Shown one piece after another: positions 5,035 through 62,566 of a DNA stretch of 64,000 nucleotides (its first letter is position 1; each line of letters opens with the position of its first letter). The notes under the pieces are model-generated. The model worked only from the letters and a program-made list of their open reading frames with translations. It searched no databases and was not told the origin of the DNA. Position numbers and translations under genes: made by a program. The DNA comes from Minutocellus sp. GHC0000111 (taxonomy: Eukaryota), in the NCBI GenBank assembly GCA_977018835.1, contig OZ361260.1, positions 3,038,001 through 3,102,000 on the forward strand, written 5' to 3'.

Positions 5035-6453
5035 TCATGATTGATCTTGCTGTTGCTGTTGCTGTTGCTGGAGTAGGGCCGGTAGAAGTTGGGCCAGGAC
5101 ATTGGCGTTGCCAATATTTGCACCTGCGTTTGTGGTACCCTGAGCTACACTTGGAGAAGATAGTGCGGCATTAGCATTGGCGGTGGCGTTATTGGTAGCA
5201 GTGGTAGCGCCGACAAGGCCGACCTCTTGAGACGTAGGCAGAGCACCGGTGCCTCCGAGAAGGCCCAGATTCTGAAGGACGGTGGTCGCAGCGACGCTGT
5301 TGGGAAGCAGTTGTTGCAGGTTGATCTGTGCCGGAGGCACCATAGGTGCCATGCCCTGTGGAGACTGCTGTTGTTGCCGGTAAGCAGACAGAGCCGAAGT
5401 GGCGAGATCGGAGGGAGACGGGGCCTGCTGGAGGCTGGGTGTCGTGGCCGCGGCGGCGGAAGCGGGGCCACCCATGGCCGAGGATGGAAGAGCAATGGAC
5501 CCAGGGACGGCAAAGTTGGTCGCGCCATTGGCCGATATGCCGGAAACTGCCGTTTGGACGGGCACCGGCGGCACCTGCAGGCCCAGGATTCGAAGAGCAT
5601 TCTGCTGACGAAGCTGATCAATCTGAGCCTGGACGGCAGCGGGAACTGAGGCAGGATTGGCAGTCGAGGACGCTTGGAATATTTGCTGAAGGCCAGGAGA
5701 AGACATCTGCTGCTGCTGCTGCTGCTGCAGCTGACGAATGAGCAAGGCGGCGGTGCTAGAGTCATTATTGTTAAGGCTGGCGACACCCGAAGCAGAAACA
5801 GGCGCAGCACTTGGGCTTGGACTTGAGGACACGGCCATGCCTCGGCTACTGATGGAGCCAGTTGCATTGACGGCGGCGTTAACGTTGGCGTTGGCAACCA
5901 TGTTACCGCTCGCTGCCTGACTGTTCTGTGCAGTCACAGCCTGCAGCTGCGCCCGGATGAGGGTGTTGTCCTGGCGGAGGGCCTCGTTGTGCCGGGTGAG
6001 CTCGTTGACCCTCTCCTGGAGCGCATCGACCAAGACCTTGGCCTTGCGCCTCCTCGCGGGCGGTCATGCGATTCATCTCGAGGCGCTCCTCGCGGCTTCG
6101 CTTGACCATCTTGCGCTTCTTGGTGCCGGACGTTGTCTCGCCCTGGTTGTCGTCGCTGGCACCTTCGTCTTGACCCTCGTTGTTTCCATAATCTGAGTGG
6201 AGGTTGTCATCGTCGCCATCGTCGTCATCGTTGGCAGAATTTGACGACGGAGCCTCGCTGGTTGCAAAGGAGGTTTCAGCCGAGACGACATGCTTTGGAC
6301 GTTCTTGCGAGGCAAACGGCCGATCGGAAGGATTTGTAGGAGGGACAGCAGAGGCTGAATCAGAAGCGGCATCGACGGTAGCAGCAGCAATTTTTGTGCC
6401 GTCACCAAACCAACACTTGCGTCGGCTGGATCGATGTTGCCGGGAGAAGCCAT
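5035..6453 (-). pseudogene. bZIP transcription factor with Q-rich tail, two frameshifts
   Basis: Basic region KRSREERLEMNRMTARE/RRK and zipper LVDALQERVNELTRHNEALRQDNTLIRAQL are split across frames; 5-bp tandem duplication at 6404-6413 and a ~2-bp loss at ~6052; ATG at 6453. Confidence 0.75.
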
Positions 6454-7061
6454 TCGTAATGCAATAACGTCGTAATGTAGACCTGCAATTTCCAATCGGA
6501 AAATGGCAATTTGATCCTTGGTTGTGTTATTGCATGCAGTGATATTATGTTAGGCCGGCGGAGAGAGTGAGTGCAGCACGTGCATGTAGTGGCAAAAGCT
6601 GCAATTTTGGGTACAGGCCAAAAACCCGTCCTCTCAATGTCACAGGCGGAGAAACTCGAAGCGGCAAAATGCAAAGACGCGACCAAAGACGCGCCCAAGA
6701 CCTCCTAAATATGGCGCATGTAATGGTAGATCAGAAAAGAACAGAAACGCGACGAAGAGAGCTTCCAAGGGCTTCCTCAAAAAATCGAAAAGTGTAGAAT
6801 TAGTGTAAAAATGGAAGTTGAACCAAGACGTCGAGTCGGCGAGGGAAACCCGAGGAACAAGCATCTGATTTTTCTTCATCCAAAATTCAGAAACCAGAAC
6901 GTGAATAGGCGACAAATGTCAGCCTTGATGACGATCATACGTCAGGCCATTCCTTGGTGACTTTCGGTGACCGAGTCCTGACTGACCAAGCCATGTTATT
7001 CCAGCAGAAGCGACGTGTCGGCAGAAATCTACTGTGCATTCATTCGTGTAAGAGGCCCTGA

Positions 7062-7091
7062 GTTAGGGTTAGGGTTAGGCCTAACCCTAAC
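7062..7091. repeat. Interstitial telomere-like (TTAGGG) inverted repeat
   Basis: gttagggttagggttagg-cctaaccctaac; 7068-7091 is a perfect 24-bp palindrome. Confidence 0.9.
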
Positions 7092-7118
7092 AGTAAAATG
7101 TAGGCCAACACGATCGTG

Positions 7119-10100
7119 CCTTTCGGTTTCAGAGGATTTGTAGAGGGTGTACCAATAACCCCTAAAAAAGGTCATTCTTGCACCCATTTCTCATTTCCCA
7201 CCAAGTGTTTTGTTAGTCGATGTTCTCTTCGGGAGGAACGCAAACACTCCTCAACTCGTGGACATCTACTGGACCTGCTCATTCAGCAGGTTGCCACCGA
7301 CCAGTAGTATCCACTGAATTCGCAGGTCCAGTAGATTCTGGCAGGAACACATGTGTATTTTTTGGTCCCCCGCACACACCCTCTCTCACCACCGCAACCC
7401 GCAAATTTTGTGACGATGACGACGACCAACCAGACCACGCCCAAAAAATACAAACGCAGCAGAACTTCGTTCTCAGGGAGCAAGAGAGGCAACACCATCA
7501 AGGCATCCAGGAAGGCGGCAAAGGCGGCAGCTGAGCCGAAAACACCATCGCCGAGCGCAAACACGTCGTCGAAGAAGCGGCCACGGTCAAATTCGCCCGC
7601 CAAACCGTCACCGTCGTCGGCGAAGAAGAGGACGGCCCCTCCTCCTATCCCCATGGCCTTTCTCCTTGCAGCAGATGTCATTCGAAGGGCTGGTAAGGAT
7701 CTGTGGTGGAGAGAGTAACCCCCGATTCCTGCGGCAAAGATGACATTTGTGTTGGTTCTTGGCAGAAATGGGAGGAAGACGTCCTCCCTGCTTTCATCGA
7801 GGCCGACTTGTTGCGTTCCAAGTCCGTCGGTGGAGGAAAGTATGAGCTACAGTACAACGAGGAAAAATGGAAGGACATGCAGCAACATCTCAAGGAGCAT
7901 TGTAGTTTGAAGTTGCACTTGTCGACACATCGGCCGAGAGGGAAGACAAGACGCAGGGCGCTTTTGTGTTTGTGCTCACAGGAGGACAACCACCCGAAAC
8001 TCTCTGGACCGGAGGGAAAGAAGGTGCACGAGAAAAGAAATCCCGATGAAGTTCTGTTCTCTGGGCGCTCGACTGTCTTAGCTACTAAGCTAGGTGAGAG
8101 GTTGTCAGCTCACAGAAAGGAGGCACAGTCAGCGCGTTGCGAAGCAAGAGCAAAATCACTAGTCGACGAGGCCAAGAAACTGGGTTGGATGCCAGCAAGT
8201 CTCCTCAGCATGCTGAAGGGAACTGGTGACACTTCCGCCACTGAAGCAGCTGCAGCCTCCCCCAATGATGAAGGTTTAGGAGGAGCCGACACTTCCGTTG
8301 TCTGTGCCACCTCCAGTGACATTGATGAACAGGTAAAGGTCGCTCTCGGCCTCGACTTTGTTGTTCGGATGGCCAACGATGACGTGCTCCGTCCTCCTCG
8401 TCCCAATGCAACCGTCACCGAACCAACACCAATCAGAAAAGAAAATCAGGCGAATGAAAGAATGCGGTTCAGCGCCGTGGCTCTCGCGGATTGGTGGGGA
8501 TGCGGCGACCCAACTCGCACGCATGAAGACCGGCAACAAATTGCAACTGCCGCGTGTCGGCAAGTTGCGTGCGATCACGGTTGTGCCAAGTCAACCGGTG
8601 GCTCTTAGCTTTACAAGTGGAGAGACCAGCTCTACAAAAGCCTTGCTGATGGCATCAGCAATCCCATCGGCAGAAAGGAGGTTCGTGGAAGGAAGGCACA
8701 CACGGACATGATCGAGGAGAAGGAGCCAGGATGTCTCCGCGAGCTGTGTCGGCATGCTGCTCGGATGAAGGGTGCGATGGCAACCTTTAAGGAGCTAGCT
8801 GACTGCATGAGCGCAAAATCAGCTACTCCAGATGAAGATAGGCTGACAATTAGTCTCCATCGTCTTCAGCTTTTTCGCTGGTGGAAAAAGCAAGGCGGTG
8901 AGGAGAAGTCGTCGATCGAGAAGCCGAGGCTCACCCCCGAATGTTGTAGGAAGCGACTTGATTGGATCGAAAAGTGGGAGGACATTACGACCGATCCCAA
9001 CATTCCTGTAGCGTGTCTTGATGAAAAGTGGTTTTACACTGCTACTCGGCGACGAAAGATCAAGATGTTGCCACTTTCTGACGAAGAACTAAGCAGTCCG
9101 AACCTCGCGTCTATCCATGCTTCCGAGGCAAGCCCGAAAATTCGATCCAGAAGACACCCTGTCAAAGTTATGTGTCTTGGAGTTGTTGGCCGACCAATGA
9201 AGGATGAAACCAAAGACGTTGATTTCAATGGGCGCATCATGATCAAGAGAGTCGCCAGGGAGCAGAAGGTGGAAAAGCTTGCGCGTAATCAGAATTTCTC
9301 TCCAGATGCTAAGGTCAACGATGCGCTAAAAAATGACAAAGATTGGCGCGACATTTACGACGAGAATGCTGACATGACCGCCGGCCATCTTTGCGACCAC
9401 ATTGCCGAAATCTACGGCCTTTCTGAGTTTGTTACAGAGCGATTGGAACTTCAATACGAGGACCACAAATCCGACGGTCAGGCAAAAAGTCGCAAGCATG
9501 CCGCTGTTGGCTACAATCAAAAGATCTCGAGTCTCAAGCGACGCACTCCTGACAGCAATGGAGAGAAGGTGAAGGTTGAGATCGACGACCTTGAGCTCGG
9601 GGTGCGGTATCAACGGGGCGATAAGGTTACCAAGGACTGTAGCTGCGACTCCAAATGGATGTTGGAGACTGTGAATGAGGTCGGGAAGGCGATTCGAGAC
9701 GCACATCATTGGGTGAAGTGGGATCCACAAAACATTCAGTCAGGAGTCTGATGTCATGCATCTTATGATGGACAATGCCGGCGGTCATGGGTCCAATGAA
9801 GCAGTTGAGAAGCACACCGAGGACCTCAAAAACAAATATAAGATTGAGATAATCCAGCAGGTTCCTCGGTCGCCCGAGACAAATGTTCTTGATCTCGGCA
9901 TCTGGATGTCTTTGCAGTCGGCCGTCGAAAAGGAGCATCGCGGTCAGAAGAATGATGCGAATGCTCTTGACAAGACTGTGATGAAAGTATGGGCCAATGT
10001 CGCATCAAAAGAGGCCTTTCTCAATGTATTTGGAAAACTTCCAGTGATATATAACAACATCAAGAGAAGTCGTGGCGGTAACAATCTTGTGGAGACCAGA

Positions 10101-10571
10101 CGGGGAAAGGCTGGTCTCGCATCAATTGCCGAGGAAGAAGCTGAAGAGGATGGTGAACCTCTCTGGCCAATTGATTTTCCCGGCGAAGATGATGACATTG
10201 AGGACGACATAGATGAAAATGATGAAGACGATGGAGTCATTGATTTGCTATAACTTATCATAGCATGTCCATTTCCATTCATTACATTTTGATTTGGTGC
10301 TTCCAAAAATGTATTTTTTCCCGGGGTGAGGAATGCAAATGTCGAAAAAAATCATCACATAATGTACATTTATTGGTTCTGGTGCACAATATCTCTCGAC
10401 TATATGTAGAAGTTGGTGACCATAACTTGGTTCTTGCCCCGACTTCCATCTTGGCCGTCATTTATTCCTCGGAGTTAGAAAAAGTGAGCTTGGATTTTTG
10501 GTCTGGTGTGGTCGTGTTTGTTTCTAATACGTCATCATCACGTCACTTTCAAATCCTCTGAACTCGAAAGG
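7119..10571 (+). mobile_element. Tc1/mariner-superfamily (DD39D-type) DNA transposon, copy A, degenerate
   Basis: 22-bp TIRs: 7119-7140 cctttcggtttcagaggatttg vs reverse complement of 10550-10571 cctttcgagttcagaggatttg (20/22); right end followed by TA; internal transposase. Confidence 0.93.
7416..10253 (+). pseudogene. DD39D transposase pseudogene (copy A)
   Basis: LDEKWF, KVMxLGVV, MDNAGGH-...-PRSPETNVLDLG with 39 residues between the 2nd and 3rd Asp; frameshifts at ~7710 and ~9745, TAG at 8606-8608. Confidence 0.9.
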
Positions 10572-10573
10572 TA

Positions 10574-11862
10574 CTCATTTCATCTCAATAGAAAGATGGT
10601 ATTTTCGAATCAGTCAGGAGATTACACAAGTAGATCATGATCTACCGATATGTTGAGCTGCGCTTCTTCTAGACTAGCTAGCCGAACTGACTGGCTGCTG
10701 CGCTGCTGCCACCGCCAAATTCCTGACTGACCTCCCCTCTCTTCAAGCAACGACATAAATAAATACCGGTAACAGCAATCTTGATGTAAATGCATGCCGG
10801 TGTTGGCATAAATTTGGTTCTGACATCAACCTTATGTTTACACTATCGACCAACTTAGGTACGGATCAGATCAAAACAAGAGATTGAATGAAAGGGGGGA
10901 TTGTGCATATTTTTCTTTTTCTTTCTCCGAGTAGCGACTTAGTTGTCACCACCGATGGCAACGAAACGCTTCTTGGCGGCCTGCTTGCGGCTGATGCGCT
11001 TTCCGGTGGCGCCCTCTCCTGCCTCGGTCTCCTCATCGGCCTTGTCAACTCCCTTCTTCTTCTCGCTGAGGATGAACTCAACGTGGGCGGGATGGCTGGC
11101 GTACTTGCCGATGCGGCCGTGGGCACGGCAGGTTCGCCTGCGGCCGGCGGGGGCCTTGTTGCACTGGGCATGGGAGACGTAGAGGGTGTCAACGTCGAGA
11201 CCCTTGGTCTCAGCGTTGGCGATGGCGTTGGTGAGCATGTCCTTGATGACGGCCGTGGCCTTGACGGGCCACCTACCCTTGGAGCCGGGGGTCTTGGACT
11301 GCTTGGCCTGGGCCTTGCGGCCGATGCCACCGGTGTGCTTGACGAAGGGGACGACGGCCTTGAAGGCGAGGACGTCCTCGAGGAACTTCATGGCCTTGTT
11401 GACAGGCATGCCGTTGATGTGGTGAGCGATCTCACGGCAGTGCTTGAAGTGCACACGGAGGTGGGATCCGCGGGTCTTGGAGTGGGCGACAGCGGCATCG
11501 GGCTCGACAGCGTAACGGGTCATGATGAAAAAGTTTTGATACAAAAATATACTAATACAGACTGTTGGGGTATTGGAAGAAAAGAATGGAAAGATGTTGG
11601 AAGTGAGAATAATGTGTTTTGGGCGGCAAATGTAGCCATTGTCGTGTATCACTGACATCTCTTTCGCAGCTCATAACCAAAGCACTGCCAGGATGAAGAT
11701 CGAGGTGTCGGTCCGATGGAAATGAAATGTGACGGATAGCCCAACCTTGAAGCCACCCAAATACACCAGTTCCTGTTGAAAATCCACCAGTATTAGCGCT
11801 GCCTGATTGCTTGACTGAGATCTGCCGCCCCACACTACGCGTTGTCTCACGGCTACACACGT
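10574..11862. repeat. Captured host segment, inverted duplicate of 45283-46571
   Basis: Near-identical reverse complement; homology stops sharply at 11862/45283 and is followed by TIR tip aactcgaaagg + TA (11863-11875). Confidence 0.93.
10939..11523 (-). CDS. RPL17: 60S ribosomal protein L17 (uL22), transposon-captured duplicate with Tyr->His and Tyr->Cys changes
   Basis: LRVHFKHCRE, GRWPVKA, RRTCRAHGRI (vs RRTYRAHGRI in the other copy); reading frame intact, intronless. Confidence 0.93.
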   Translation of the reverse strand: MTRYAVEPDAAVAHSKTRGSHLRVHFKHCREIAHHINGMPVNKAMKFLEDVLAFKAVVPFVKHTGGIGRKAQAKQSKTPGSKGRWPVKATAVIKDMLTNAIANAETKGLDVDTLYVSHAQCNKAPAGRRRTCRAHGRIGKYASHPAHVEFILSEKKKGVDKADEETEAGEGATGKRISRKQAAKKRFVAIGGDN

Positions 11863-12139
11863 AACTCGAAAGGTACCGCCGCTGTCCCGCGTCGCGCGTC
11901 GCCACCCATGACATTTTCCGCAAAGCCGAGGGACAAAACAAGGATATGTGCCGGACTGCCTCTTTCGCCTATTTCGCCGGATTTCGCGGCAATCGCAATC
12001 GCAATAACACTCGCCTCAGAAGTCGCCAATCCGTCACATTTATTGCATCCACTCAAAGCTCCAAACTACCTAGAGCTAGCTAGAGCTACGTAGTAGTACT
12101 AACCTGCTTTCCTTCCATTCATCCGTTCGTTGACTCCAC

Positions 12140-13150
12140 ATGTCACCCATCAAGTCCCTCTACCGCCGCGCCATCGATGACCAGGCTGTTGCCATGTGTG
12201 CTGCTGCTACGTATGCCCCCTCGCGAATGCAGCAGCCATCATCAATACTAGTAGTGACGCCCTTCCATCCCCTTCCATTCTCCTCCCTTGCGGCTCCAGC
12301 CACTTCTACCGGCCAATCGACCACAGGCGCGTCAACGTCTGCCCCCATCCCAACTCCAGTTGTCTCTCCGCCCACGACCACAGATGTTGACGTCTACGTG
12401 CTTGACTGCATTTCCAGTATCAGCAGCAATACTTCTGAAAGTGCGCCCAGCACTGGCGCTGATTCTTCCTCTACTGCTACGCCCCACATGACCAAGAAGG
12501 AACGGCGCCTCATCATGAATCGCAACTCTGCCCGCCTTCGTCGCAAGCGTCACGCCGAGAAGATGGACAAGATGCAAGGTACCGTCCGCGATCTGGAGAT
12601 CAGCAACAAGCGCATGCGCACCGAGAACGACGAGCTTCGCAAGGCCATCGCCGACCTCAAGGCGCTGGTGGAGGAAAGGAATCAAGCAATGCCTGCAAGC
12701 AGTGTCGCCACTATCGCTCCTGATGGTGCAGCTTCTCCCCAATCTGTTGCATCTGCTAAAGTGGACGCTACTACATACGAGTCATTGGCTGCCTCGGCAC
12801 TGGCCAAGTGCGCAAGAATCAGCGCCGCTCCAGAAAAGCAAGGGGAGGAAATCTCTCCGAAGACCACGCTTGTCAAGCCTACCATGCCACCCAAATACAT
12901 GACTGTAGATGCCAACAATACCCTCTTTCGCTCCTACCTTCTCTGCCGTGCTGCCTCCCTGCGTCTGTTCACGAGAAATTCCTCTGCTGAAGATAAAACG
13001 TCCTTCGATGTTTCTACCAATGTCCCTTCCAGCAGCATTCAGCCCAGTACTTCTAGATCTACTGGAGTTGACATGACCTCAACCACCGACGAGATTGAAG
13101 CCACAAAGCTTGCTGCTCAGCAGCTCACTGCTCTGGCCTTCATGGGATAA
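12140..13150 (+). CDS. bZIP transcription factor
   Basis: KKERRLIMNRNSARLRRKRH basic region followed by heptad zipper (MQGTVRDLEISNKRMRTENDELRKAIADLK). Confidence 0.9.
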   Translation: MSPIKSLYRRAIDDQAVAMCAAATYAPSRMQQPSSILVVTPFHPLPFSSLAAPATSTGQSTTGASTSAPIPTPVVSPPTTTDVDVYVLDCISSISSNTSESAPSTGADSSSTATPHMTKKERRLIMNRNSARLRRKRHAEKMDKMQGTVRDLEISNKRMRTENDELRKAIADLKALVEERNQAMPASSVATIAPDGAASPQSVASAKVDATTYESLAASALAKCARISAAPEKQGEEISPKTTLVKPTMPPKYMTVDANNTLFRSYLLCRAASLRLFTRNSSAEDKTSFDVSTNVPSSSIQPSTSRSTGVDMTSTTDEIEATKLAAQQLTALAFMG

Positions 13151-34250: not shown

Positions 34251-36271
34251 CTATCGCTTGCATTCCGTACAGCAAGTGCACTCTAGTTGAGGATTTGGTC
34301 CACGGCAGTCAGAGATCAACGATCGGATGAAACCATCACCAATCGGAGGTACGCGATTATCGCATATTTGCTGTGGCATCGTGCCAGTGAGATCGGCGTA
34401 CTCGAAGCCACCAACAATGAGAAGATCAAGATTTCCAAGCTCGGTCGGAATAGTTCCCCGAAGGGGATTGCCTCCGACTTGTAAGAAGCGCAGTGTTGTC
34501 ATCTCGCCTAATCGTGGCGACAGGGTTCCAGTGAGGGTAATATTGTTGAGGTCAAATTGCAATAGCTCTCTCAAATCAAAGAAGGTGCTTGGGATGGTAC
34601 CAGAAATTTCGTTGAAATCGACATCAAAGACCAAAAGCCTCTCCATCTTTCCATACTCCTCAGGAATAGGACCCGACAGACGCCCTCTCTCCGTGTAAAA
34701 GAAGCGAAGATCCGATAGCTCACTCACTTCCACTGGCAACGCCCCAATGAGGTTATTGCTCTCAAATTCGATCCTATCCAAACACAAATCGTTAGCGTTG
34801 CACTCCAAACCTCCCCAGAAACACTCACTGACGGGCGTCAGCCAAGCATCGGTACCACTAATGCGAGGGAAAATGTCGGTGCCGAGAGGGGGCGGAGTAA
34901 GGCCCAAATTGCACGCATCATTGGCTTCTTGGATGCTCGCTGGGTCGGACAGATCATCAGGCGCAGAACACTGCACCCAATTGGGTCCATTGGTCGAGAA
35001 GTAGAACACAGCCGCGACATATCTCTGAAGAGACTTTGCATCCTGCGGGCAGACGTAGAGAGCATCTTCGTCAATGAGCCACTCGAGAGCATTGTATTGA
35101 GGAGTGCCCGGAGTGATTGGTGCCGTTGGTCCAGAAACACGAATTGCCTGGAGTGTGAGCTGTTCCCTTCGTTCCACAGGAGTCAAATTACATCGCAGTG
35201 TGGGGTTGAACGTAGGTGTAGCGGTAGGAGACGCCGTGGTTGGGACAGGGGTGGGCCCCGGCGTCGGAACGGGGGTCGGTGCTGGTGTGGGATTTGGCGT
35301 CGGTGGGGGCGTCGGTGGGACAGGGGTGGGCGGGACGGGCGTAGGCGGTGCCGCTGTGGGCGGAACTGGCGTCGGGGGCACTGCGAGAGGAGCAATGCCA
35401 AGAAGTGAAGAACAAGATACACGATGAGAAATGTGGCGAGAATAATGAAAAAAATAAACAAAAGATTTTCTGCTGTGATTATCGTTGACTTACCTGGCGT
35501 GGGAGGCACCGCCGTTGGAGGAACAGGAGTGGGTGGGACTGGAGTGGGTGCCTTTGTCGGGCTTGGTGTTGGGCCAGGAGTCGGTGCCTTGGTGGGTGCC
35601 TTCGTCGGTGCAGGCGTAGGAGGCTTTGTAGCGGAAGCTGTAATGGAAATGGTCACCACGGCACTGTCGGTAGCACCAGATGTGTCGGCAATAGTGTACG
35701 TGAAGGAATCCGTGGCAGTCTCGCCGTTTTGGAGGGAATCGTATTGACCATTGGGATCGTATGTGTAGTCTCCCTTGTTGTTGATGGTCAGGATCGCACC
35801 AGAACCGAGCGTCACGGTAGTCTCACGTCGTACAGGCTTTCCATCTACACGGAACACGGCGATGTCGTCTCCATCGGGATCGGAATCGTTGGCCAAGACA
35901 TTGCCACTGACGGTGGCATCGTCCCTGGTTGTAGCCGTGACGTCGTTGGCGACGGGGGGCTGATTGGGGATGGACCCACCAACCTGCTGCAGCATGCGTG
36001 CCCAGAATTCTTCATCGGCCTCATCAATCACATCGCTATCATTTTCGTACATCTGCTGGCCCATCAGCTTCATTGCCTTGGCTCCCAACCGCCGTCTCCT
36101 CCGGTCCGGGCCTTTGTTTTTGTTCCTTTTGCTATCTATCTTTGCTGTTGCTGCCTCCTCGGATGCCACTTGCTGTGTTGCGGCAGATACCGACGATATG
36201 CAACCACCGGACAGGGCCCAAAGCCCCAAAGACAAGGCAATCAATCGATGGTGTCGCTGTAATTGCATCAT
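34251..36271 (-). CDS. Secreted LRR protein with cadherin-like/bacterial Ig-like domain and Pro-rich linker
   Basis: Signal peptide; PPVANDV...GNVLANDSDPDGD...DSFTYTI; PTP repeats; PQ..AL.WL..ED..QRY cap; LRRs; DC..ECTCCTEC end; intron ~35383-35493. Confidence 0.88.
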
Positions 36272-39381: not shown

Positions 39382-41402
39382 TTAGAAGCACGACGAACAG
39401 CAGTCGCACTCAATTTTGGGATCATTTCCAGCACAATCCGCAGTTAGAATGTTAAGTAGCCCATTGGGAACACGATTATCGCAGACAGACTGTGGCATTG
39501 AACCGCTGAAATCATTGCCACGGAAGGTAGCAGTGCCTATTATAATAATGTTGCAGTGAACCATGAAATGAATGTGGACTTGGTGAGGATACGGTACTAG
39601 AATACCCCAGAGAGAAAACAATCGAGGACAGCAAAAAAAAAACTCCTGTGGTACTTACGCAATTTTGTGAGCCGGCTAAAAGTGTCTGGAATCTTTCCTT
39701 CGAACTTGTTATCTTCAAACTCAACAAAGACCAGGTCGGTAAGCCGCCCAACCCTGTCACTCAGAGTTCCCTCCAGGCGATTTTCGTCAATATCTAGTAC
39801 CTTGAGAGTGTCAAGGTTGAAAAGATTGTCACTGATTGGACCAGAAAGCCTATTCTGATCCAGATCCAAGACCTGAAGGCTCTCTCCATTCCAGACTCCT
39901 GAACCCCACTCCTCCGGGATGGTGCCAGAAGTTCGGCCGCCTTCCAGAGTGAGATTTCTGAGCTTATTGAGGGCCAAAATTTCGGCGGGGAAAGTACCTC
40001 CAAGATCGTTGCCCTCAAAGCCAATGACAGAAATATCATTTCCAGTACACTTGCTGCCAGCCCAGTCGCACTCAGAACTGGCCGAGAGGTAGGGCTTCTT
40101 GCCAGGAAAGCCACTGTTTGGAGCGCCACAAGGAACATTCTAAATGGGAAAGAAAGAGAATAACAAATATGATGGTCAGAGGCGTGTTCATTTTCTAACC
40201 AAGCAAATGAATGTGACAGAAAGGGATAATTTCGCGCCAATATAAAGTATATCTCACCTGCAGCCTTCTTCCCTTGCTCTTATCATCGCGGCCACCCTTC
40301 TTGCTATTCTTCTTCTTCCTCTTGTCATTCTTGTTCTTGTTGTTCCGATCGCGGCTGTCGGAATTATTATCCCTCTTCCTCCGCCCCTTTTCAAGCTCCT
40401 TCTTGGCCTCCTCCCAGTCGCACTTTGTCTCAACGAAACAGTCAGCACGGCACTCAAGTTCTTTGGGCTCGTTACAGAGACGGTCTCCACCATTGTCCTT
40501 GCAGCACTTGTCACGGCAGTACTTGAGACAATTAGTCTCGCCTTCTTTGTCCTTGTTTCCGCCGCCGCCTGTGCGGGCGAGTTGTTCGTCGTTATCGTCA
40601 TCATCATCGCCCCGGGCGGAATTGTCTTCAAGGACGACAATAGCTGGCTCCTTCTCTTTGATAGCCACCTTGTCATTGTCATCCTCGGCCCTTACAGAAG
40701 CCGATCCGGCCGAGCATTCAGCCCATCGATCGCCATCGGTGGAGTAGTAGAACACGGCCATAATGTATCTTTGGATGAGATTGTCATCGTCGGGACAGAG
40801 CTGGGCCTCATCCTCGTTTGTGATCCAGTTCAACGCCCTACCCTGCGGGCTGCGATCGTCGGCGATATTCTGGCGAGAGGAGACTCCTGATGCGGTGATC
40901 TCGTCGAGGATGCGACGCTGCCTCTGTCGTTCCGTAAGTCCATTGCAGACTGGGGATTGGGGAAAGTTTTACAACATGGCAAGGAAAATCAGAGAAGAAC
41001 AAAGTCAGCGATACGAGTGTGACATAAGAAAAAAAATGGCAATGCAATCCAGCCTCAAAAACACCAAAGAGGGGGAAATCAGCGATGCTACTCACCAGTA
41101 GGCCCGGGTGATGGGGCAGGTCCAGGTCCAGGAGAAGGTGGAAGACTACCACCCTTCTTTTCCTTGAGGTATCGGTCCCAGTAGGCCAGATCTTCCAGGG
41201 CGAGCACGTCCTCATCCGTTGCGGCCTGTTTGTCACCCCAAATCGAGAAACGATTCTTCCCACGGAGCTGACGAGCACCAGTCGTTGAGGTTTTGCCATC
41301 GTCATGATGAAAGGCGGCATCGACGGTAGCAGGGACGAGGATGACCATCGCCGCTGCCACGACAAGGGCCAAAGCAGTGCCGTGTTGTCTCATGATTTTC
41401 AT
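39382..41402 (-). CDS. Secreted LRR protein with Cys-rich/charged insertion
   Basis: Signal peptide, [18 protein letters not shown] cap, LRRs, [13 protein letters not shown]; three GT-AG introns (~40952-41096, ~40141-40257, ~39538-39658). Confidence 0.85.
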
Positions 41403-44715: not shown

Positions 44716-45621
44716 GGTTAGGTTTTGGTTTGCGGTTGCTTTGAACGGTTGGATCAAGTGAATTGTGATGGAATGATACGATACGTGCCAATGCCGCGGA
44801 AGTTTGACGCAGAACAAAACAACGCAGAGTTCTGCAGAACTCCTGCGTCAACCCAACACATCACGAGATCACGAGTAGATGAGTCATTCGATTGAGTCAG
44901 TGAGATTGAAAAGTTTCAGGTGATTCCTCAAAATTTCGCAACTTACTTCGATTTCCCCCCAAAACCAAATTCTACCTGCTTACTAAGAAACACGCTTTCC
45001 GGGTTATGCACATACTAGTAGCTCATAACCTGTTTCCCGCTCTTTTTCGTTTTTCATACGAAAACGAGATGTGAGTGGAACGATGGCCGAGTTGCCGGCT
45101 AGTGGAGGTAGATTTTATCGACCGACCATGTCAGTGAACGCTGGGGGACCTTTCCGTTGGTGCATGCGAGCGTTGAAGTGCTGCAGGAGTTGTAGCAGAT
45201 GGAGAGAAAACGCAGCACATCCTCGGCTGGTGATCTGCCTCTCGGGACCTCACCTCCGATTGGAAACACCGGCGGAGCAGACACGTGTGTAGCCGTGAGA
45301 CAACGCGTAGTGTGGGGCGGCAGATCTCAGTCAAGCAATCAGGCAGCGCTAATACTGGTGGATTTTCAACAGGAACTGGTGTATTTGGGTGGCTTCAAGG
45401 TTGGGCTATCCGTCACATTTCATTTCCATCGGACCGACACCTCGATCTTCATCCTGGCAGTGCTTTGGTTATGAGCTGCGAAAGAGATGTCAGTGATACA
45501 CGACAATGGCTACATTTGCCGCCCAAAACACATTATTCTCACTTCCAACATCTTTCCATTCTTTTCTTCCAATACCCCAACAGTCTGTATTAGTATATTT
45601 TCGTATCAAAACTTTTTCATC

Positions 45622-46206
45622 ATGACCCGTTACGCTGTCGAGCCCGATGCCGCTGTCGCCCACTCCAAGACCCGCGGATCCCACCTCCGTGTGCACTTCA
45701 AGCACTGCCGTGAGATCGCTCACCACATCAACGGCATGCCCGTCAACAAGGCCATGAAGTTCCTCGAGGACGTCCTCGCCTTCAAGGCCGTCGTCCCCTT
45801 CGTCAAGTACACCGGTGGCATCGGCCGCAAGGCCCAGGCCAAGCAGTCCAAGACCCCCGGCTCCAAGGGTAGGTGGCCCGTCAAGGCCACGGCCGTCATC
45901 AAGGACATGCTCACCAACGCCATCGCCAACGCTGAGACCAAGGGTCTCGACGTTGACACCCTCTACGTCTCCCATGCCCAGTGCAACAAGGCCCCCGCCG
46001 GCCGCAGGCGAACCTACCGTGCCCACGGCCGCATCGGCAAGTACGCCAGCCATCCCGCCCACGTTGAGTTCATCCTCAGCGAGAAGAAGAAGGGAGTTGA
46101 CAAGGCCGATGAGGAGACCGAGGCAGGAGAGGGCGCCACCGGAAAGCGCATCAGCCGCAAGCAGGCCGCCAAGAAGCGTTTCGTTGCCATCGGTGGTGAG
46201 AACTAA
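45622..46206 (+). CDS. RPL17: 60S ribosomal protein L17 (uL22), native copy
   Basis: RGSHLRVHFK, GRWPVK, RRTYRAHGRI intact; strong codon bias. Confidence 0.97.
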   Translation: MTRYAVEPDAAVAHSKTRGSHLRVHFKHCREIAHHINGMPVNKAMKFLEDVLAFKAVVPFVKYTGGIGRKAQAKQSKTPGSKGRWPVKATAVIKDMLTNAIANAETKGLDVDTLYVSHAQCNKAPAGRRRTYRAHGRIGKYASHPAHVEFILSEKKKGVDKADEETEAGEGATGKRISRKQAAKKRFVAIGGEN

Positions 46207-46573
46207 GTCGCTACTCGGAGAAAGAAAAAGAAAAATATGCACAATCCCCCCTTTCATTCAATCTCTTGTTTTGATCTGATCCGTACCTAAGTTGGTCGAT
46301 AGTGTAAACATAAGGTTGATGTCAGAACCAAATTTATGCCAATACCGGTATGCATTTACATCAAGATTACTGTTACCGGTATTTATTTAAATCGTTGCTT
46401 GAAGAGAGGGGAGGTCAGTCAGGAATTCGGCGGTGGCAGCAGCGCAGCAGCCAGTCAGTTCGGCTAGCTAGTCTAGAAGAAGCGCAGCTCAACATATCGG
46501 TAGATCATGATCTACTTGTGTAATCTCCTGACTGATTCGAAAATACCATCTTTCTATTGAGATGAAATGAGTA

Positions 46574-49500
46574 CCTTTCGAGTTCAGAGGATTTGAAAGT
46601 GACGTGATGATGACGTATTAGAAACACGACCACACCAGACCAAAAATCCAAGCTCACTTTTTCTAACTCCGAGGAATAAATGACGGCCAAGATGGAAGTC
46701 GGGGCAAGAGCCAAGTTATGGTCACCAACTTCTACATATAGTCGAGAGATATTGTGCACCAGAACCAATAAATGTACATTATGTGATGATTTTTTTCGAC
46801 ATTTGCATTCATTCCTCACCCCGGGAAAAAACACATGTTTTTGGAAGCACCAAATCAAAATGTAATGAATAGAAATGGACATGCTATGATAAGTTATAGC
46901 AAATCAATGACTCCATCGTCTTCATCATTTTCATCTATGTCGTCCTCAATGTCATCATCTTCGCCGGGAGCATCAATTGGCCAGAGTGGTTCACCATCCT
47001 CTTCAGCTTCTTCCTCGGCAATTTTTGCGAGAGACTAGCCTTTCCCCGTCTGGTCTCCACAAGATTGTTACCGCCACGACTTCTCTTGATGTTGTTATAT
47101 ATCACTGGAAGTTTTCCAAATTCATTGAGAAAGGCCTCTTTTGATGCGACATTGGCCCATACTTTCATCACAGTCTTGTCAAGAGCATTCGCATCATTCT
47201 TCTGACCGCGATGCTCCTCCTTTTCGACGGCCGACTGCAAAGACATCCAGATGCCGAGATCAAGAACATTTGTTTCGGGCGACCGAGGAACCTGCTGGAT
47301 TATCTCAATCTTATATTTGTTTTTGAGGTCCTCGGTGTACTTCTCAACTGCTTCATTGGACCCATGACCGCCGGCATTGTCCATCATAAGATACATGACA
47401 TCATCAGACTCCTGAATATTTTGTGGATCCCACTTCACCCAATGATGTGCGTCTCGAATCGCCTTCCCGACCTCATTCATAGTCTCCAACATCCATTTGG
47501 AGTCGCAGCTACAGTCCTTGGTAACCTTATCGCCCCGTTGATACCGCACCCCGAGCTCAAGGTCGTCGATCTCAACCTTCACCTTCTCTCCATCATTGCC
47601 ATCCATCAGGAGTGTGTCGCTTGAGACTCGAGATCTTTTGATTGTAGCCAACAGCGGCATGCTTGCGACTTTTTGCCTGACCGTCGGATTTATAGTCCTC
47701 GTATTGAAGTTCCAATTGCTCTGTAACAAACTCAGAAAGGCCGTAGATTTCGGCAATGTGGTCGCAAAGATGGCCGGCGGTCATGTCAGCACTCTCTCGT
47801 CGTAAATGTCGCGCCAATCTTTGTCATTTTTTAGCGCATCGTTGACCTTAGCATCTGGAGAGAAATTCTGATTACGCGTAAGCTTTTCCACCTTCTGCTC
47901 CCTGGCGACTCTCTTGATCATGATGCGCCCATTGAAATCAACGTCTTTGGTTTCATCCTTCATTGGTCGGCCAACAACTCCAAGACACATGACTTTGACA
48001 GGGTGTCTTCTGGATCGAATTTTCGGGCTTGCCTCGGAAGCATGGATAGACGCGAGGTTCGGACTGCTTAGTTCTTCGTCAGAAAGTGGCAACATCTTGA
48101 TCTTTCGTCGCCGAGTAGCAGTGTAAAACCACTTTTCATCAAGATGCGCTACAGGAATGTTGGGATCGGTCGTAATGTCCTCCCACTTTTCGATCCAATC
48201 AAGTCGCTTCCCACAACATTCGGGGGTGAGCCTCGGCTTCTCGATCGACGACTTCTCCTCACCGCCTTGCTTTTTCCACCAGCGAAAAAGCTGAAGACGA
48301 TGGAGACTAATTGTCAGCCTATCTTCATCTGGAGTAGCTGATTTTCCGCTCATGCAGTCAGCTAGCTCCTTAAAGGTTGCCATCGCACCCTTCATCCGAG
48401 CAGCACACCGACGACACAGCTCGCGGAGACATCCTGGCTCCTTCTCCTCGATCATGTCCGTGCATGCCTTCCTTCCACGAACCTCCTTTCTGCCGATGGG
48501 ATTGCTGACGCCATCAGCAAGGCTTTTGTAGAGCTGGTCTCTCCACTTGTAAAGCTGAGAACCACCGGTTGACTTGGCATGGCCGTGATCGTGCGCAACT
48601 TGCCGACACGCGGCAGTTGCAATTTGTTGCCGGTCTTCATGCGTGCGAGTTGGGTCGCCGCATCCCCACCAATCCGCGAGAGCCACGGCGTTGAGCCGCA
48701 TTCTTTCATTCGCCTGCTTTTCTTTTCTGATTGGTGTTGGTTCGGTGACGGTTGCATTGGGACGAGGAGGACGGAGCATGTCATCGTTGGCCATCCGAAC
48801 AACAAAGTCGAGGCCGAGAGCGACCTTTGCCTGTTCATCAATGTCACTGGAGGTGGCACAGACAACGGAAGTGTCGGCTCCTCCTAAACCTTCATCATTT
48901 GGGGAGGCTGCAGCTGCTTCAGTGGCGGAAGCATCACCAGTTCCCTTCAGCATGCTGAGGAGACTTGCTGGCATCCAACCCAGTTTCTTGGCCTCGTCGA
49001 CTAGTGATTTTGCTCTTGCTTCGCAACGCGCTGACTGTGCCTCCTTTCTGTGAGCTGACAACCTCTCACCTAGCTTAGTAGCTAAGACAGTCGAGCGCCC
49101 AGAGAACAGAACTTCATCGGGATTTCTTTTCTCGTGCACCTTCTGTCCCTCCGGTCCAGAGAATTTCGGGTGGTTGTCCTCCTTCTTTTTGCGCGCAACC
49201 TGTGAGCACAAACACAAAGCGCCCTGCGTCTTGTCTTCCCTCTCGGCCGACACGTCGATCGACAAGTGCAACTTCAAACTACACAATGCTCCTTGAGAGA
49301 TGTTGCTGCACATCCTTCCATTTTTCCTCGTTGTGCTGTAGCTCATTGTTTCCTCCACCGACGGACTTGGAACGCAACAAGTCGGCCTCGATGAAAGCAG
49401 CAGGGAGGACGTCTTCCCATCATTTCTGCCTGCCGAGAACCAACACAAATGTCATCTTTGCCGCAGGAATCGGGGGTTGCTCTCTCCACCACAGATCCTT

Positions 49501-50080
49501 ACCAGCCCTTCGAATGACATCTGCTGCAAGGAGAAAGGCCATGGGGATGGGAGGAGGAGGGGCCGTCCTCTTCTTCGCCGACGACGGTGACGGTTTGGCG
49601 GGCGAATTTGACCGTGGCCGCTTCTTCGACGTGTTTGCGCTCGGCGATGGTGTGTTTTCGGCTCAGCTGCCGCCTTTGCCGCCTTCCTGGATGCCTTGAT
49701 GGTGTTGCCTCTCTTGCTCCCTGAGAACGAAGTTCTGCTGCGTTTGCATTTTTTGGGCGTGGTCTGGTTGGTGGTCGTCGTCATCGTCACAAAATTTGCG
49801 GGTTGCGGTGAGGGTGTGCGGGGGACCAAAAAACACACATGTGTTCCTGCCAGAATCTACTGGACCTGCGAATTCAGTGGACACTGCTGGTCGTCGGTGG
49901 CAACCTACTGAATGAGCAGGTCCAGCAGACATCCACGAGTTGAGGAGTGTTTGCGTTCCTCCCGAAGAGAGCATCGACTAACAACAAAACACGTTGTGGG
50001 AAATGAGAAATGGGTGCAAGAATGACCTTTTTTAGGGGTTATTGGCACACCCTCTCTACAAATCCTCTGAAACCGAAAGG
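46574..50080 (-). mobile_element. DD39D mariner-type transposon, copy B, degenerate
   Basis: TIRs at 46574-46595 and 50059-50080; TA at 46572-46573; inverted homolog of 7119-10571. Confidence 0.93.
46894..49784 (-). pseudogene. DD39D transposase pseudogene (copy B)
   Basis: ORF fragments 49452-49838, 47781-49448, 47593-47817 and 46935-47756 carry DEKWF, MDNAGGH and NVLDLG; many small indels. Confidence 0.9.
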
Positions 50081-51087
50081 TGACGACTCAAGGGGCGCAA
50101 GGGGCCGCCGTTTTTTCACCTCTGTCTCTGTTGCTCTCTCTCTCTCATCTCCTTATTGAAGGATTGGTTTCGGAATGATGTAATAATGATGCCACATCGA
50201 AAGAATTGCTCTTGAGTTTGAATTTGCGAGTTTCTGGACACACATGTTCTTACATGCGAGAATGGGGCGAGCACGGGTGGAAAAGAGATGTATCACGTAG
50301 GTCTGCTAAGAGGTCCTAAAGCTAAGCTAGATAGACATAGCTAGTAGAGGTTAATAGGACCTACGTAGATGAAAAATGGGCCATCGGAGATGTCGTTGGC
50401 CCATGGATCAACGGTCAGGATAGGGCACTGAGTCAGTGGTCTGATCACCGTACGTACCGTACGTATGTATACGTACGTACGTATCCCACGGTGTCAACAG
50501 ATCGCATCGGCATGCATCCAGGCTCACAGAGTTGCAAAGAAGGTAATCGTTGCAAAAGGCAACAATGATTTTCTTGGAAACGGTGAAGGCATTCATGTTG
50601 GGGTGCGAAAGGATTTCAGGCCGACTGAAAATGAATGGCATGGTTCGGATAGATGGGAAAATTGTCGCTCCTCCCCCCCCCCTCCTCCTGCTGCTGCTGC
50701 TGCTGACATCCAACCATGGATAATTAGTCCTGCGGTGCTTTTAAGTTATGTTATGTTTAAAATAATACTAGATAATTTAGATTCGAGCTATATTTGTGCT
50801 ACTACACACACATGCCGTACATGCATGTGTAGTGCTCTCTTGTCAGTTTTGATGGTTCCGGCTTTGCATGCATGTGTCCGTGTCCGGGTTGCGGGCCCAA
50901 AAATCGACATTTTTTGGTCCCGGCCCTGCGCTCGATTTCTCGCGAAACGGACTTCGTATTCGCCTTGCCTCGTGACTTTTGCAATGCCAGAGTCAAAAGA
51001 CTGGTAAGAGGTGAAGGATCGTCTCATCCGCTCCAGATCGGCCCGGGCTCATTACAATTCCAATTTAAGAGCACAGATTATAATAGA

Positions 51088-54603: not shown

Positions 54604-56061
54604 CTACGGATATCTATTACTAGTATTCTGTGGATTTTTGTTATCAGGAGGGGGCGCTTCGTCGCCAGTCACAAGCAGGGACGGCTCGAAGCAAGCCGTG
54701 CAACAGCTTGGGGAAGCACACTCGACGTAAAACTTGGCTGAAGGGACGAGGCAGTCGCACGTCAGAGATCCAATGAGACCATCCTGTGTGTTTCGTAGAT
54801 TACATACTTCCTGAGGCATGCTCCCGTTCATTTGATTACGGTCAAAGTTGGCGATCGCGAGCTGCGATAGGAGACCAATCTCAGTTGGAATTGTACCGGT
54901 AATTCGATTTTTCGATAGCTGTAGGAAGCGCAGCGAAGAGAGGTTGCCAATGTCACTTGAAAGGGATCCCTGCAGGAGATTATCATTCATGTCGAGCTCT
55001 ACCAGATTTTTCAGCTGGTAGATTGTAGTGGGAATGCTCCCAACAAGTAGATTGAAGTTCACATCAAATTCTTGCAGCTTGGAGATGTTTCCAATCTCCG
55101 GTGGTATTGTTCCTGCAGTTTTTCCTTCTTCAAGGTGAAGGAACAGAAGCTCCTTTAGCTCTTGGAGCTCTCTGGGAATAGTACCCTGAAGGTTATTGCT
55201 CTCTGTAGAATGGAGATAAAAGAAGAGTTAATAACGATTGTCGTATGAAGGGACTTTTCGTGTCATCGCAAGCGTATCTTTCGATTTGTTTTTACAAATC
55301 CATTTCTACTTACCGAAATCGATTCGAACCAAAGAGTCGCCAAGGTTGCGCCTACAGGCCAAGCCTCCCCATTGACATTCGCTGACGGGTGTGAGCCAGG
55401 CGTCCGTACCGCCAACATCGGGCGAGTCAACTTCTATGTTGCAATTGGCATTTGCCTTCTCGATACTTTGAGGGTCCTCCAAATCTTCGGGCGCCGAGCA
55501 CTGCAACCAACCGTCGCCGATAGAAGAATAATAGAACACAGCGGCAACATATCTCTGTACCAAAAAATCATCATCGGGGCACAGATACATGGCATCTTTA
55601 TTGACAAGCCAATCAAACGCCATGTTCTGGGGACTGCCGACCTTGTTGAGATCCTCCACCTTGGATACTTGCGATAGTGTTGCTGTAATCTGACCTCTCC
55701 TCTCTACTGCAGGCATTCCGCAGGGAAGCGTTGGGGCAGGGGTTGGGTCCGGCACCGGCACCGGCACTGGCAAAGGCGGCATGCTGTTGTCATCATCTAG
55801 TGCCTTGTTGAGGAGTTCCTGGATTTCCTCTAAATCTTCCTTGGCCTCCTTGACCCACTTGGCGATCAAATTTCCTCCACCGAACTTCGTCCTTCGCTCT
55901 ACCAACTCTTCCTCTGATACTTGCTCGGTCTGCTGTGTGGCCCGACGAAGGCGCTTCGGTCTCTCCTTGTGCTTGATTCGGTTGTCTTCGCTTACATTCT
56001 TTTGCTTGATCGCCAGGACCGTCGAGGAAAGGCCCAACAAAACAAGAGCCGATACCTTCAT
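54604..56061 (-). CDS. Secreted LRR protein
   Basis: Signal peptide, SPQNMAFDWL..D..LCP..QRY cap, DAWLTPVSECQWGG, LRRs, TCDC..CCTACF; intron ~55204-55313. Confidence 0.9.
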
Positions 56062-60746: not shown

Positions 60747-62566
60747 TTAGAAGCATTGAGTGCAGCATGGCGTCGCGCACTCGACATAGAATGGGTCGGC
60801 AGGATCAAGGCAGTCACTCGTCAGAGTTCGCAAGTTGCCAGCTCGAAGAAGACACACCTCCTCAGGCATTGGGTCCTGCAAAAAGTTTGTGTCAAAAGTT
60901 GCAACAACTGCAAAATTGCGATAGAGAAAGTGGCAACGCGAAAGAATAGGTTAGCATACCATATCGTTTATACACCAGACATTGAATCTCAATGAATATA
61001 GCATCAACATGCAAAAGTTCATTTCGACTCACTCAATCTGTTCAAGTTGCCAACTTCAGCGGGAATGGATCCGGTGAACTGATTGCGGTGGAACTGCAAG
61101 AAAGTAAGCTTGGTCATCTTTTGTATGTCCGGACTAATCGGACCGCTGAGAGAGTTGTCATTCATGTCAAACTCCAGCAGGTTGGCCAGATTGTACATGT
61201 TGGCAGGGATAGAACCGGTGAGAGCATTGAAGTTCATATCAAGCTCGAGGAGGTTACTCAAGTTGCCCAACTCAGGTGGGATTGTACCACCGGTTCGTCC
61301 CTCTTCCATGTGGAGGAAACGAAGCTCCTGAAGCTCCTGGAGCTCTCTGGGGATAGTACCAGCCAGATTATTTTTCTCTGCAAAGTGAGCGAGTAAGAAG
61401 AGGAAGGGGACACTTTTGAGTTAGTTGCAAATGACAAATACATGTATACTAATTCGACCGAAAAATCTTCCACCAAATCTCGTAAAGCCATGCAAACCAA
61501 TCGAACAAAGACACTTACCGAACTCAATGCGCTCCATGTCGCCACTGACGGTGTCGCACGCAACGCCACCCCACTGACACTCGGAGACAGGGGTTAGCCA
61601 GGCATCGGTACCACCTTGGCCGATCTCTACCTCCAAATCGCAATTGGCATTGGCCTCACGGATGCTGTTCGGGTCGGACAGATCGTCAGGAGCCGAGCAC
61701 TCGACCCAATTCGGTCCGTCGGTGGAAAAGTAGAACACGGCCATGGTATACCTCTGAATCAGGAAGGGATCGTCGGGACAAAGGTAGAGGCTGTCCTCCT
61801 CGGTGATCCACTTCAGACTTCGACTTTGCGGAGAGAAAGGCGACACGAAATCAATGGGATTGGACACCTGGCCAAGGATATCGGCAATGGCAACGGCTCT
61901 GTCTTCTGGACTGAAGTTGCAAGTGAAGGTCGGGGCAGGAGTCGTCGGCGCCGCTGTGGTCGGCCGAGGGGTAGGTGCTGGTGTGGGGCCAGGAGTTGGT
62001 GGGGGGGTTGGACCTGGTGTGGGTGGGGGGGTTGGACCTGGCGTGGGTGGGGGGGTCGGCCCAGGAGTCGGCCCAGGAGTTGGGCGTGGTGTCGGACGAG
62101 GAGTCGGCTGAGGAGTCGGATTCGGTGTCGGACGACGCGTCGGAGGAGGAGTTGGAACAATCGACGAATCCTCGGTCAAAAAGCGATCCCAATATCCCTC
62201 GTCTTCCAATGCCATGTCATCCTCTGTCTCTATCTGATTCTTTCTGTTGAGACCTCTCTTGCTGATGATCTTCTTCGTCGTTGTAGCTCTCTTCTGACTC
62301 TTTTTCGCTGGCATTGCATTTGCAATAGCACCATTGACGGCAACTCCTTCCACCACTTTCGTCGCCGCCGTTTCCTTCAACCGCATAAGGTCAATAGCAT
62401 TTTGGTGTTGATCGATTGCTGCTGCCCCTCCGATAGACGCCCGACGTACCCTCAGCGAGCTTTTGCTATTTGTCGACGCCGCTGCCGCCGTCGAAGCTTG
62501 GACCTCAACTGAGGCTGCCGCCGCCGAGGCGGCAATTAGCCCGAGGCCGAGGGCGACCCGGCGCAT
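60747..62566 (-). CDS. Secreted LRR protein with PTP-repeat stalk
   Basis: Signal peptide, PTPGPTPP repeats, SPQSRSLKWITEED..CP..QRY, LRRs, TADC..ECATPCCTQCF; introns ~61378-61518 and ~60877-61031. Confidence 0.9.

Follow-up and report, generated by a model that had tools for sequence, protein, structure and literature searches.

Loss of TA dinucleotides to TG or CA in a Tc1/mariner-type transposon family of Minutocellus sp. and in a putatively captured copy of RPL17

RESULTS AND DISCUSSION

A family of DD39D Tc1/mariner-type transposons from the diatom Minutocellus sp. GHC0000111 loses TA dinucleotides to TG or CA on both strands and at 20–60% of the sites, which raises GC instead of AT, and the same change has reached a copy of the ribosomal protein gene RPL17 that appears to have been captured by one of these elements. 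Our comparisons of sequences within a window of 64,000 nt (positions 3,038,001–3,102,000 of contig OZ361260.1), of their protein homologs and of short-read contigs indicate that this loss of TA is real, family-wide and unusual.

Organization of the composite element and of its donor locus

The product of the native gene was identified as uL22/RPL17 by a match to PF00237 (Ribosomal_L22; E = 6e-29) and by 46 PDB sequences at E ≤ 1e-40, and its nearest protein cluster, 96% identical, contains names from the diatom group Minutocellus, Arcocellulus and Extubocellulus. The duplication exceeds RPL17, because positions 7119–11862 are an inverted match to 45283–50080, with 96.2% identity, and it comprises the following features:

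7117–7118, plus strand: left target-site duplication (TSD) of element A, which reads TG where TA is expected; the right side has TA at 11874–11875
7119–10571, plus strand: element A, a DD39D Tc1/mariner-type transposon delimited from its inverted repeats, with 22-bp terminal inverted repeats (TIRs) at 7119–7140 and 10550–10571
7712–10253, plus strand: transposase of element A (tblastn with P0157), broken by a stop and a frameshift and lacking 13 of 21 conserved Tyr
10572–10573, plus strand: TA apparently copied from the donor junction, where it is the right TSD of element B; the same TIR-TA-flank junction is found at 46572–46573
10574–11862, minus strand: putatively captured host segment of 1,289 bp, with 339 bp upstream, the RPL17 CDS and 365 bp downstream; nine copy-derived substitutions, five of them TA losses
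10939–11523, minus strand: RPL17/uL22 copy A, an open frame of 194 aa with Tyr63His and Tyr132Cys, from the ORF list and the homolog columns
11863–11873, plus strand: exact 11-nt duplicate of the right TIR tip; the donor locus lacks this tip, and the join is without visible microhomology
11874–11875, plus strand: right target-site TA of the composite element, from the sequence; the empty-site joint in run X18 resumes at 11874
45283–46571, plus strand: native RPL17 segment, CDS at 45622–46206; 0 of 48 TA sites lost, a change of its own at 45602 and a polymorphism at 46200
46574–50080, minus strand: element B, the donor-side copy of the same transposon, from its inverted repeats; 9 of 19 conserved Tyr lost
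50081–50082, plus strand: outer TSD of element B, which has lost its TA in place; the empty allele in run X1 reads TA

The order at site A is thus TIR-TA-gene-11-nt tip-TA, and element B sits 365 bp behind the stop codon of native RPL17. As in other Tc1/mariner elements there are short TIRs, of 22 bp, and a TA target, which is present to the right of both elements and in the empty allele, the left copies being degenerate; the TG at 7117–7118 is presumably derived from TA. The transposase is broken in both elements; in an intact relative, P0157, the triad is D444/D693/D733, with 39 residues between the second and third Asp, and among 88 aligned proteins 62 were DD39D and 13 DD38D, with 13 not scorable. 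In triad, TIRs and target the elements agree with the Tc1/mariner (ITm) type named DD39D; unlike in usual DD39D elements, the transposase here has around 850 aa, with 248 residues between the first and second Asp, and belongs to no Pfam family at the cut-off. No Pfam transposase domain was found above the cut-off in six proteins, the best match being HTH_Tnp_Tc3_2 in the relative P0169 (26.6 bits; cut-off 31.5). A metagenome scan retrieved 24 related loci, one with 62% identity, one with a short match of 71% and the others with 27–47%; they are too distant to be usable for polarising DNA changes, and no TIRs were found in the two loci examined. Ahead of the transposase, both elements contain an inverted repeat that can form a hairpin (7264–7336 and 49856–49929), and whose arms are longer in the 62% relative (L001:2567–2651).

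Short-read contigs show several of these structures. Run X18 has an empty site at A, joining 7041 to 11874; donor-type contigs of X1, X6 and X7 continue with the native flank at 11862, and a contig across the 11862/11863 junction of copy A is present in X1 and X2, which probably come from the same strain as the window. A 1,333-nt contig of X1 joins the gene flank to far-flank-like sequence without element B, and this element-free allele makes it likely that element B is heterozygous. Contig depths for the gene, the A junction and the other haplotype were 225, 78 and 102 in X1 and 296, 126 and 109 in X2; contig depth does not equal copy number, and these values are compatible with about three gene copies and with A on one haplotype. 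The RNA libraries X6 and X7 contained native letters only; their contigs extend through intergenic DNA and lack the copy-A junction, so they are uninformative on expression.

Element A lies between a bZIP-like gene (5035–6450, minus strand), apparently frameshifted in its basic region near 6053, where a contig of X2 agrees with the window and X12 diverges, and a second, divergent bZIP gene (12140–13150). Just outside the left TIR there are a telomere-like TTAGGG/CCCTAA inverted stretch (7061–7116) and a perfect 10-bp palindrome (7109–7118); both are absent from the X18 empty site and are possibly an older footprint or a small insertion. The other haplotype, found in X1, X2 and X5, differs in sequence in the intergenic stretch 7041–12043 and has a 60-to-27-nt replacement at 12069–12130; the window contains no match to an 18-nt motif of the alternative haplotype. 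Additionally, a 10-bp tandem duplication of the window at 12070–12080 is missing in the contigs of X1, X2 and X5, and is a recent mutation or an assembly error. Elsewhere in the window, four dispersed coding segments with 70–78% identity (34919–35029, 40709–40832, 55051–55510 and 61226–61815) encode proline-rich, likely secreted proteins.

Capture of RPL17

The sequences support the capture of RPL17 by the transposon, and from the TIR tip, the donor in cis and the indel-free gene segment we infer that it occurred by gap repair in place. Element A would have been broken within its right TIR, 11 nt in, leaving an end that invaded the sister element B, 36 kb away and beside native RPL17; repair synthesis would have run through the TIR, the TA and 1,289 bp of flank, and the new strand would have been joined to the leftover 11-nt tip. 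The proximal join at site A uses TIR homology and the distal join is without visible microhomology. There were no indels in the 1,289-bp gene segment, with around five expected for one mutating copy, vs. 26 in the ca. 3.5 kb of the element pair (p = 0.008); by this contrast the captured segment seems to be of more recent origin than the two elements, as expected if capture postdated insertion. A plain element A preceding capture was not seen in any run examined. End-bypass transduction was also considered and rejected, since the donor locus lacks the 11-nt tip.

This capture is a further case of the Pack-TIR kind already known. Single-copy Pack-TIRs are described as captures made after insertion, with a bias for donors in cis and with microhomology in 67.6% of cases (PMC8277862). 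Likewise, the composite element holds host DNA from the same chromosome within TIR ends (7119–11873, flanked by TG/TA, the right end being just the 11-nt tip), apparently in a single copy and seemingly captured after insertion. It differs from the elements of that report (PMC8277862) in that the gap was filled with the flank of a sister element, including TIR and TA, the break lies at the terminus, 11 nt in, a whole gene was taken with upstream DNA, the distal join shows no visible microhomology and the host is a diatom.

Substitutions in the captured copy

Copy A and the native segment differ in 11 substitutions and no indels along 1,289 bp. Nine of them are copy-derived: five TA>TG/CA changes, two CpG losses (10717 and 11404) and one tandem pair (10754/10755). 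A preliminary description of this DNA had listed eight of the 11, missing 10754/10755 and 10945. We recovered all five of its TA>TG/CA differences (10776, 10796, 10802, 11129 and 11337) and, as it stated, no TA loss in the native segment (0 of 48 sites); from the three CpG losses that it ascribed to copy A, those at 10717 and 11404 hold, whereas 11543 corresponds to a change in the native copy itself, at 45602, according to the contigs of X5, X6 and X7, which match copy A at this site; the contig of X1, in which one differing letter is unlisted, shows no difference there. Position 10945 (46200 in the native copy; Asp/Glu193) is polymorphic, with the native letter in X5 and the copy letter in X1 and X7. 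The native haplotype has therefore at most two changes of its own, vs. nine in copy A.

The direction of change is set at 11129 by the Tyr of the RRTYRAHGR motif, which was correctly taken to be conserved: Tyr132 is Tyr in 120 of the 120 listed homologs. The expectation that orthologs would lack His or Cys at the altered sites was borne out for this residue and not for Tyr63 (Tyr in 75, Phe in 38 and His in seven of the same 120 homologs), where His is tolerated, although the residue is Tyr in 15 of 15 close cluster members. The conservation of Tyr likewise led us to reject an action of RIP on the native copy (CA>TA). Contigs show the native letter at 11129, 11337 and 11404 in X5, X6, X7, X12, X14 and X18, at 10796 and 10802 in X5, X12, X14 and X18, and at 10717, 10754/10755 and 10776 only in X5 plus X1 and X2, probably from the same strain, such that X5 is the one independent run giving the direction at 10776. 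It is likely that copy A is a poor or dead gene through Tyr132Cys; it is also redundant beside native RPL17.

TA sites were enriched among the copy-derived changes (five of nine; p = 1e-6 under a uniform model and 2e-4 for transitions only), and all five losses are at purine-TA. The changes are also clustered, with three TA losses within 27 bp (p = 0.027), so that the number of independent events could be as low as three, and five of eight events inside 86 bp (p = 0.009).

The letters of copy A were absent from the contigs of all eight runs examined, and the 10-bp duplication near 12070 is missing from those of X1, X2 and X5, as would be expected if these letters were assembly errors. Such contigs drop minority alleles, however, and the native letter at 10945, which is real in X5, was likewise dropped in X1; moreover, the junction contig is present in X1 and X2, the depths agree with about three copies, and losses of TA also occur in short-read family contigs (at 7853, and as the majority state at 10364 and 10421). 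We consider assembly error highly improbable.

TA loss across the transposon family

Since the two elements split, A has lost 20 and B 23 of around 98 TA sites each (20–23%), and ten sites were lost independently in both, with CA in one and TG in the other; in the element bodies we took the direction from the TA rule, other than at Tyr codons and at sites with outgroup letters. Decay of CpG as the source of these CA-versus-TG doublets was rejected for eight of the ten, by Tyr codons or outgroup letters. Compared with intact relatives, conserved Tyr were lost in 13 of 21 cases in A and 9 of 19 in B, whereas among the control residues only 3 of 196 and 4 of 191, respectively, were changed. The same pattern is seen in 18 other proteins of the family (14 listed from a 275-member cluster and four others; two more references gave a similar result), where 111 of 237 conserved Tyr observations were changed, 66 to His, 45 to Cys and none to any other residue. 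TA losses in short-read contigs, together with that in the outer TSD of element B, indicate that the process is real and acts in place. None of 82 homologs outside the window's family had at least two His/Cys at 11 Tyr columns; most of these lie on short contigs, in which copies are likely to be collapsed, and the result does not argue for absence of the process from other species.

The spectrum of changes is narrow. Both strands were affected (23 CA vs. 20 TG), and T>C changes occurred at 48 of 265 TA (18%), 8 of 636 TT (1.3%), 7 of 652 TG (1.1%, a rate confounded with CpG decay) and 0 of 674 TC, which gives a TA:TT ratio of about 14:1; purine-TA was favoured (p = 4e-5), and 28 of 30 changes at TA were transitions. 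Other mutations accompany them: there were six pairs of adjacent non-TA substitutions, in five tracts, vs. 0.26 expected, two of which were confirmed as derived in A by four runs, and 20 of the 26 indels are tandem units, mostly of 2–4 nt. Element B (47781–50080, compared with 7119–9700) has the extra sequence in 20 of the 26. Indels do not cluster near TA sites, and the idea that they are centred on TA was not supported.

Transposon-directed hypermutation is known as a C>T process; that of RIP depends on RID and is set off by homology during the sexual cycle. The C>T or CpA>TpA change that defines RIP was not what we found here, given that the polarity of Tyr codons shows TA>CA/TG; the process is RIP-like in effect but fails this defining test. 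As in fungal RIP, including that of a histone H3 captured by a hAT element, dinucleotide-specific transitions on both strands cripple repeats, and the captured copy is damaged while the original is intact (PMC6710886). Unlike in RIP, TA is destroyed and not made, the change is partial (20–60% of sites), and tandem substitutions and short duplications occur alongside.

Relation of TA loss to transposon context

The difference between the two RPL17 copies is by itself marginal and suggestive only: 5 of 48 TA sites were lost in copy A vs. 0 of 48 in the native segment (Fisher's test, two-sided p = 0.056, one-sided p = 0.028), non-coding sites gave 3 of 41 vs. 0 of 41 (p = 0.24), and events were 8:2 (p = 0.11) or 8:1 (p = 0.039), with neutral events at 6:1 (p = 0.125). 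Conversely, element B lost 23 of around 98 TA, vs. 0 of 48 in the adjoining gene segment (p = 5e-5) or 0 of its 41 non-coding sites (p = 2e-4), and the same RPL17 sequence loses TA once inside an element. The earlier proposal that the mutator follows transposon context was thus sustained insofar as a TA-directed process is tied to transposon DNA, and not by the neutral asymmetry between copies or by the element end, which is cold.

The context of TA loss is indeed patchy. Loss declines from the left to the right end of the element; only 3 of 26 TA sites were lost at the gene-adjoining end (9900–10571) and none of 22 in either copy at 10319–10718, and the captured upstream region lost none of 15. 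Untranslated TA sites may be under selection. Local CpG count was not associated with TA loss (p = 0.12), so proximity to CpG was not supported as a driver. Beyond element B, the outer TSD, in single-copy flank, lost its TA with respect to the X1 empty allele; positions 50083–50110 differ from this allele by a 2-nt tandem gain and one substitution, a hint that mutagenesis may spread past the left end of the element.

The argument that RIP would hit both copies did not survive. RIP inactivated the copies of a histone H3 captured by a hAT element and spared only the original, an exception that the authors credit to purifying selection (PMC6710886); one-sidedness also arises under RIP plus selection and, therefore, does not identify the trigger. 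The trigger could accordingly be duplication itself, through a homology-based, RIP-like process that exposes both copies, while recombination with the element-free allele, together with purifying selection and small numbers, would make the native one look clean. The histone H3 precedent, in which only the original of a captured housekeeping gene escaped (PMC6710886), the non-significant asymmetry at neutral sites (3 of 41 vs. 0 of 41; p = 0.24) and the presence in diatoms of DNMT4 enzymes related to RID (PMC9998398) are all in its favour. We nevertheless regard a duplication trigger as quite unlikely, because RIP makes the opposite change, C>T, the native haplotype departs from the majority contig at only about two of 1,289 positions vs. 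nine gained by copy A, and TA was lost from a single-copy TSD flank.

A genome-wide TA>TG/CA bias, visible wherever selection is absent and with no targeting, would fit the redundancy of copy A and the scarcity of TA in the whole window (observed/expected 0.59). However, the ratio is far lower in the elements (0.35–0.38, and 0.21 near one end), purine-TA is depleted in them (0.92–1.05) and not in the rest of the window (1.4), and the allelic differences in the segment (10690, 10945, 10993 and 11543) are not TA losses. Such ordinary decay is in our opinion a very unlikely explanation.

Possible origin of the TA>TG/CA changes

The account that we favour, tentatively and at somewhat less than even confidence, combines the capture of RPL17 by repair near the right end of the transposon, on a sister element, with TA>TG/CA changes made by Pol-eta-like synthesis in silenced transposon DNA. 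The enlarged element would be silenced as transposon DNA, silencing being assumed here; DNA methylation represses young transposons in Phaeodactylum (PMC9998398). Patch synthesis in the silenced DNA, which would depend on a RAD30/POLH ortholog if Pol eta is at work, would insert G across from template T, in most cases at TA, and would also yield the tandem substitutions and the 2–4-nt duplications, while native RPL17 would escape through open chromatin, aided by selection. We favour it because one process would cover the order TA>TT>TC, the clusters, the tandem changes and the short duplications. The motifs TA and AA are the WA motif of Pol eta, with dGTP inserted opposite dT (PMC9054841, PMC7884765), and the A>G changes in the elements occur at WA (TA, AA) and, apart from a rate at TG that is confounded with CpG decay, not at SA. 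As in the mutagenesis by Pol eta during somatic hypermutation, A>G is more frequent at TA than at AA and absent at GA, with clusters (PMC7884765, PMC9054841). Compared with that mutagenesis, the preference for TA is much sharper here, transversions are few, and the changes are biased to purine-TA, germline and transposon-wide. The purine-TA preference is left unexplained by Pol-eta-like synthesis. Human Pol eta has a less sharp TA preference than that of our spectrum. This sharper preference and the near lack of transversions keep alive a base-modifying enzyme, which would modify the base at TpA in transposon DNA (by adenine deamination, or by oxidation of thymine to 5hmU and beyond), the lesion being fixed as T:A>C:G, in a dedicated defence resembling RIP in reverse.

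Base modification would account for the nearly pure transitions, the strong di- and trinucleotide preference and the action on both strands. It also has a possible parallel in dinoflagellates, algae in which 5hmU is a mark of transposons with a preference for TA and TC (PMC11572971). In that work, however, 5hmU is a mark and not a demonstrated mutator, it concerns dinoflagellates and not diatoms, and its preference extends to TC, with 0 of 674 changes in our elements. Additionally, base modification leaves the tandem substitutions and short duplications unexplained, and there was no paper on diatom TET/JBP among the literature matches listed; on balance, we consider it unlikely. RNA editing is ruled out as a cause of the TA loss, since cut-and-paste elements pass through no RNA stage.

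Implications

No report of a TA>TG/CA signature of transposons in diatoms was found among the literature matches listed, in a search that took in few subscription papers. If genome-wide, this would be an undescribed mutational process in a major group of phytoplankton, which would bias the dating and annotation of diatom repeats and determine what becomes of captured genes. Through a few diagnostic sites, the RPL17 pair allows a direct test of whether chromatin or duplication is the trigger. Although we hold it to be doubtful, this diatom lineage might possess a dedicated 'reverse RIP', with an enzyme of its own that would turn the TpA of transposon chromatin into CpA or TpG; Tyr codons and the TA targets of Tc1/mariner elements would be lost in this way, and the process would spread onto any captured host gene. 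If so, the RPL17 pair would be a natural reporter, with an identical sequence in two chromatin states.
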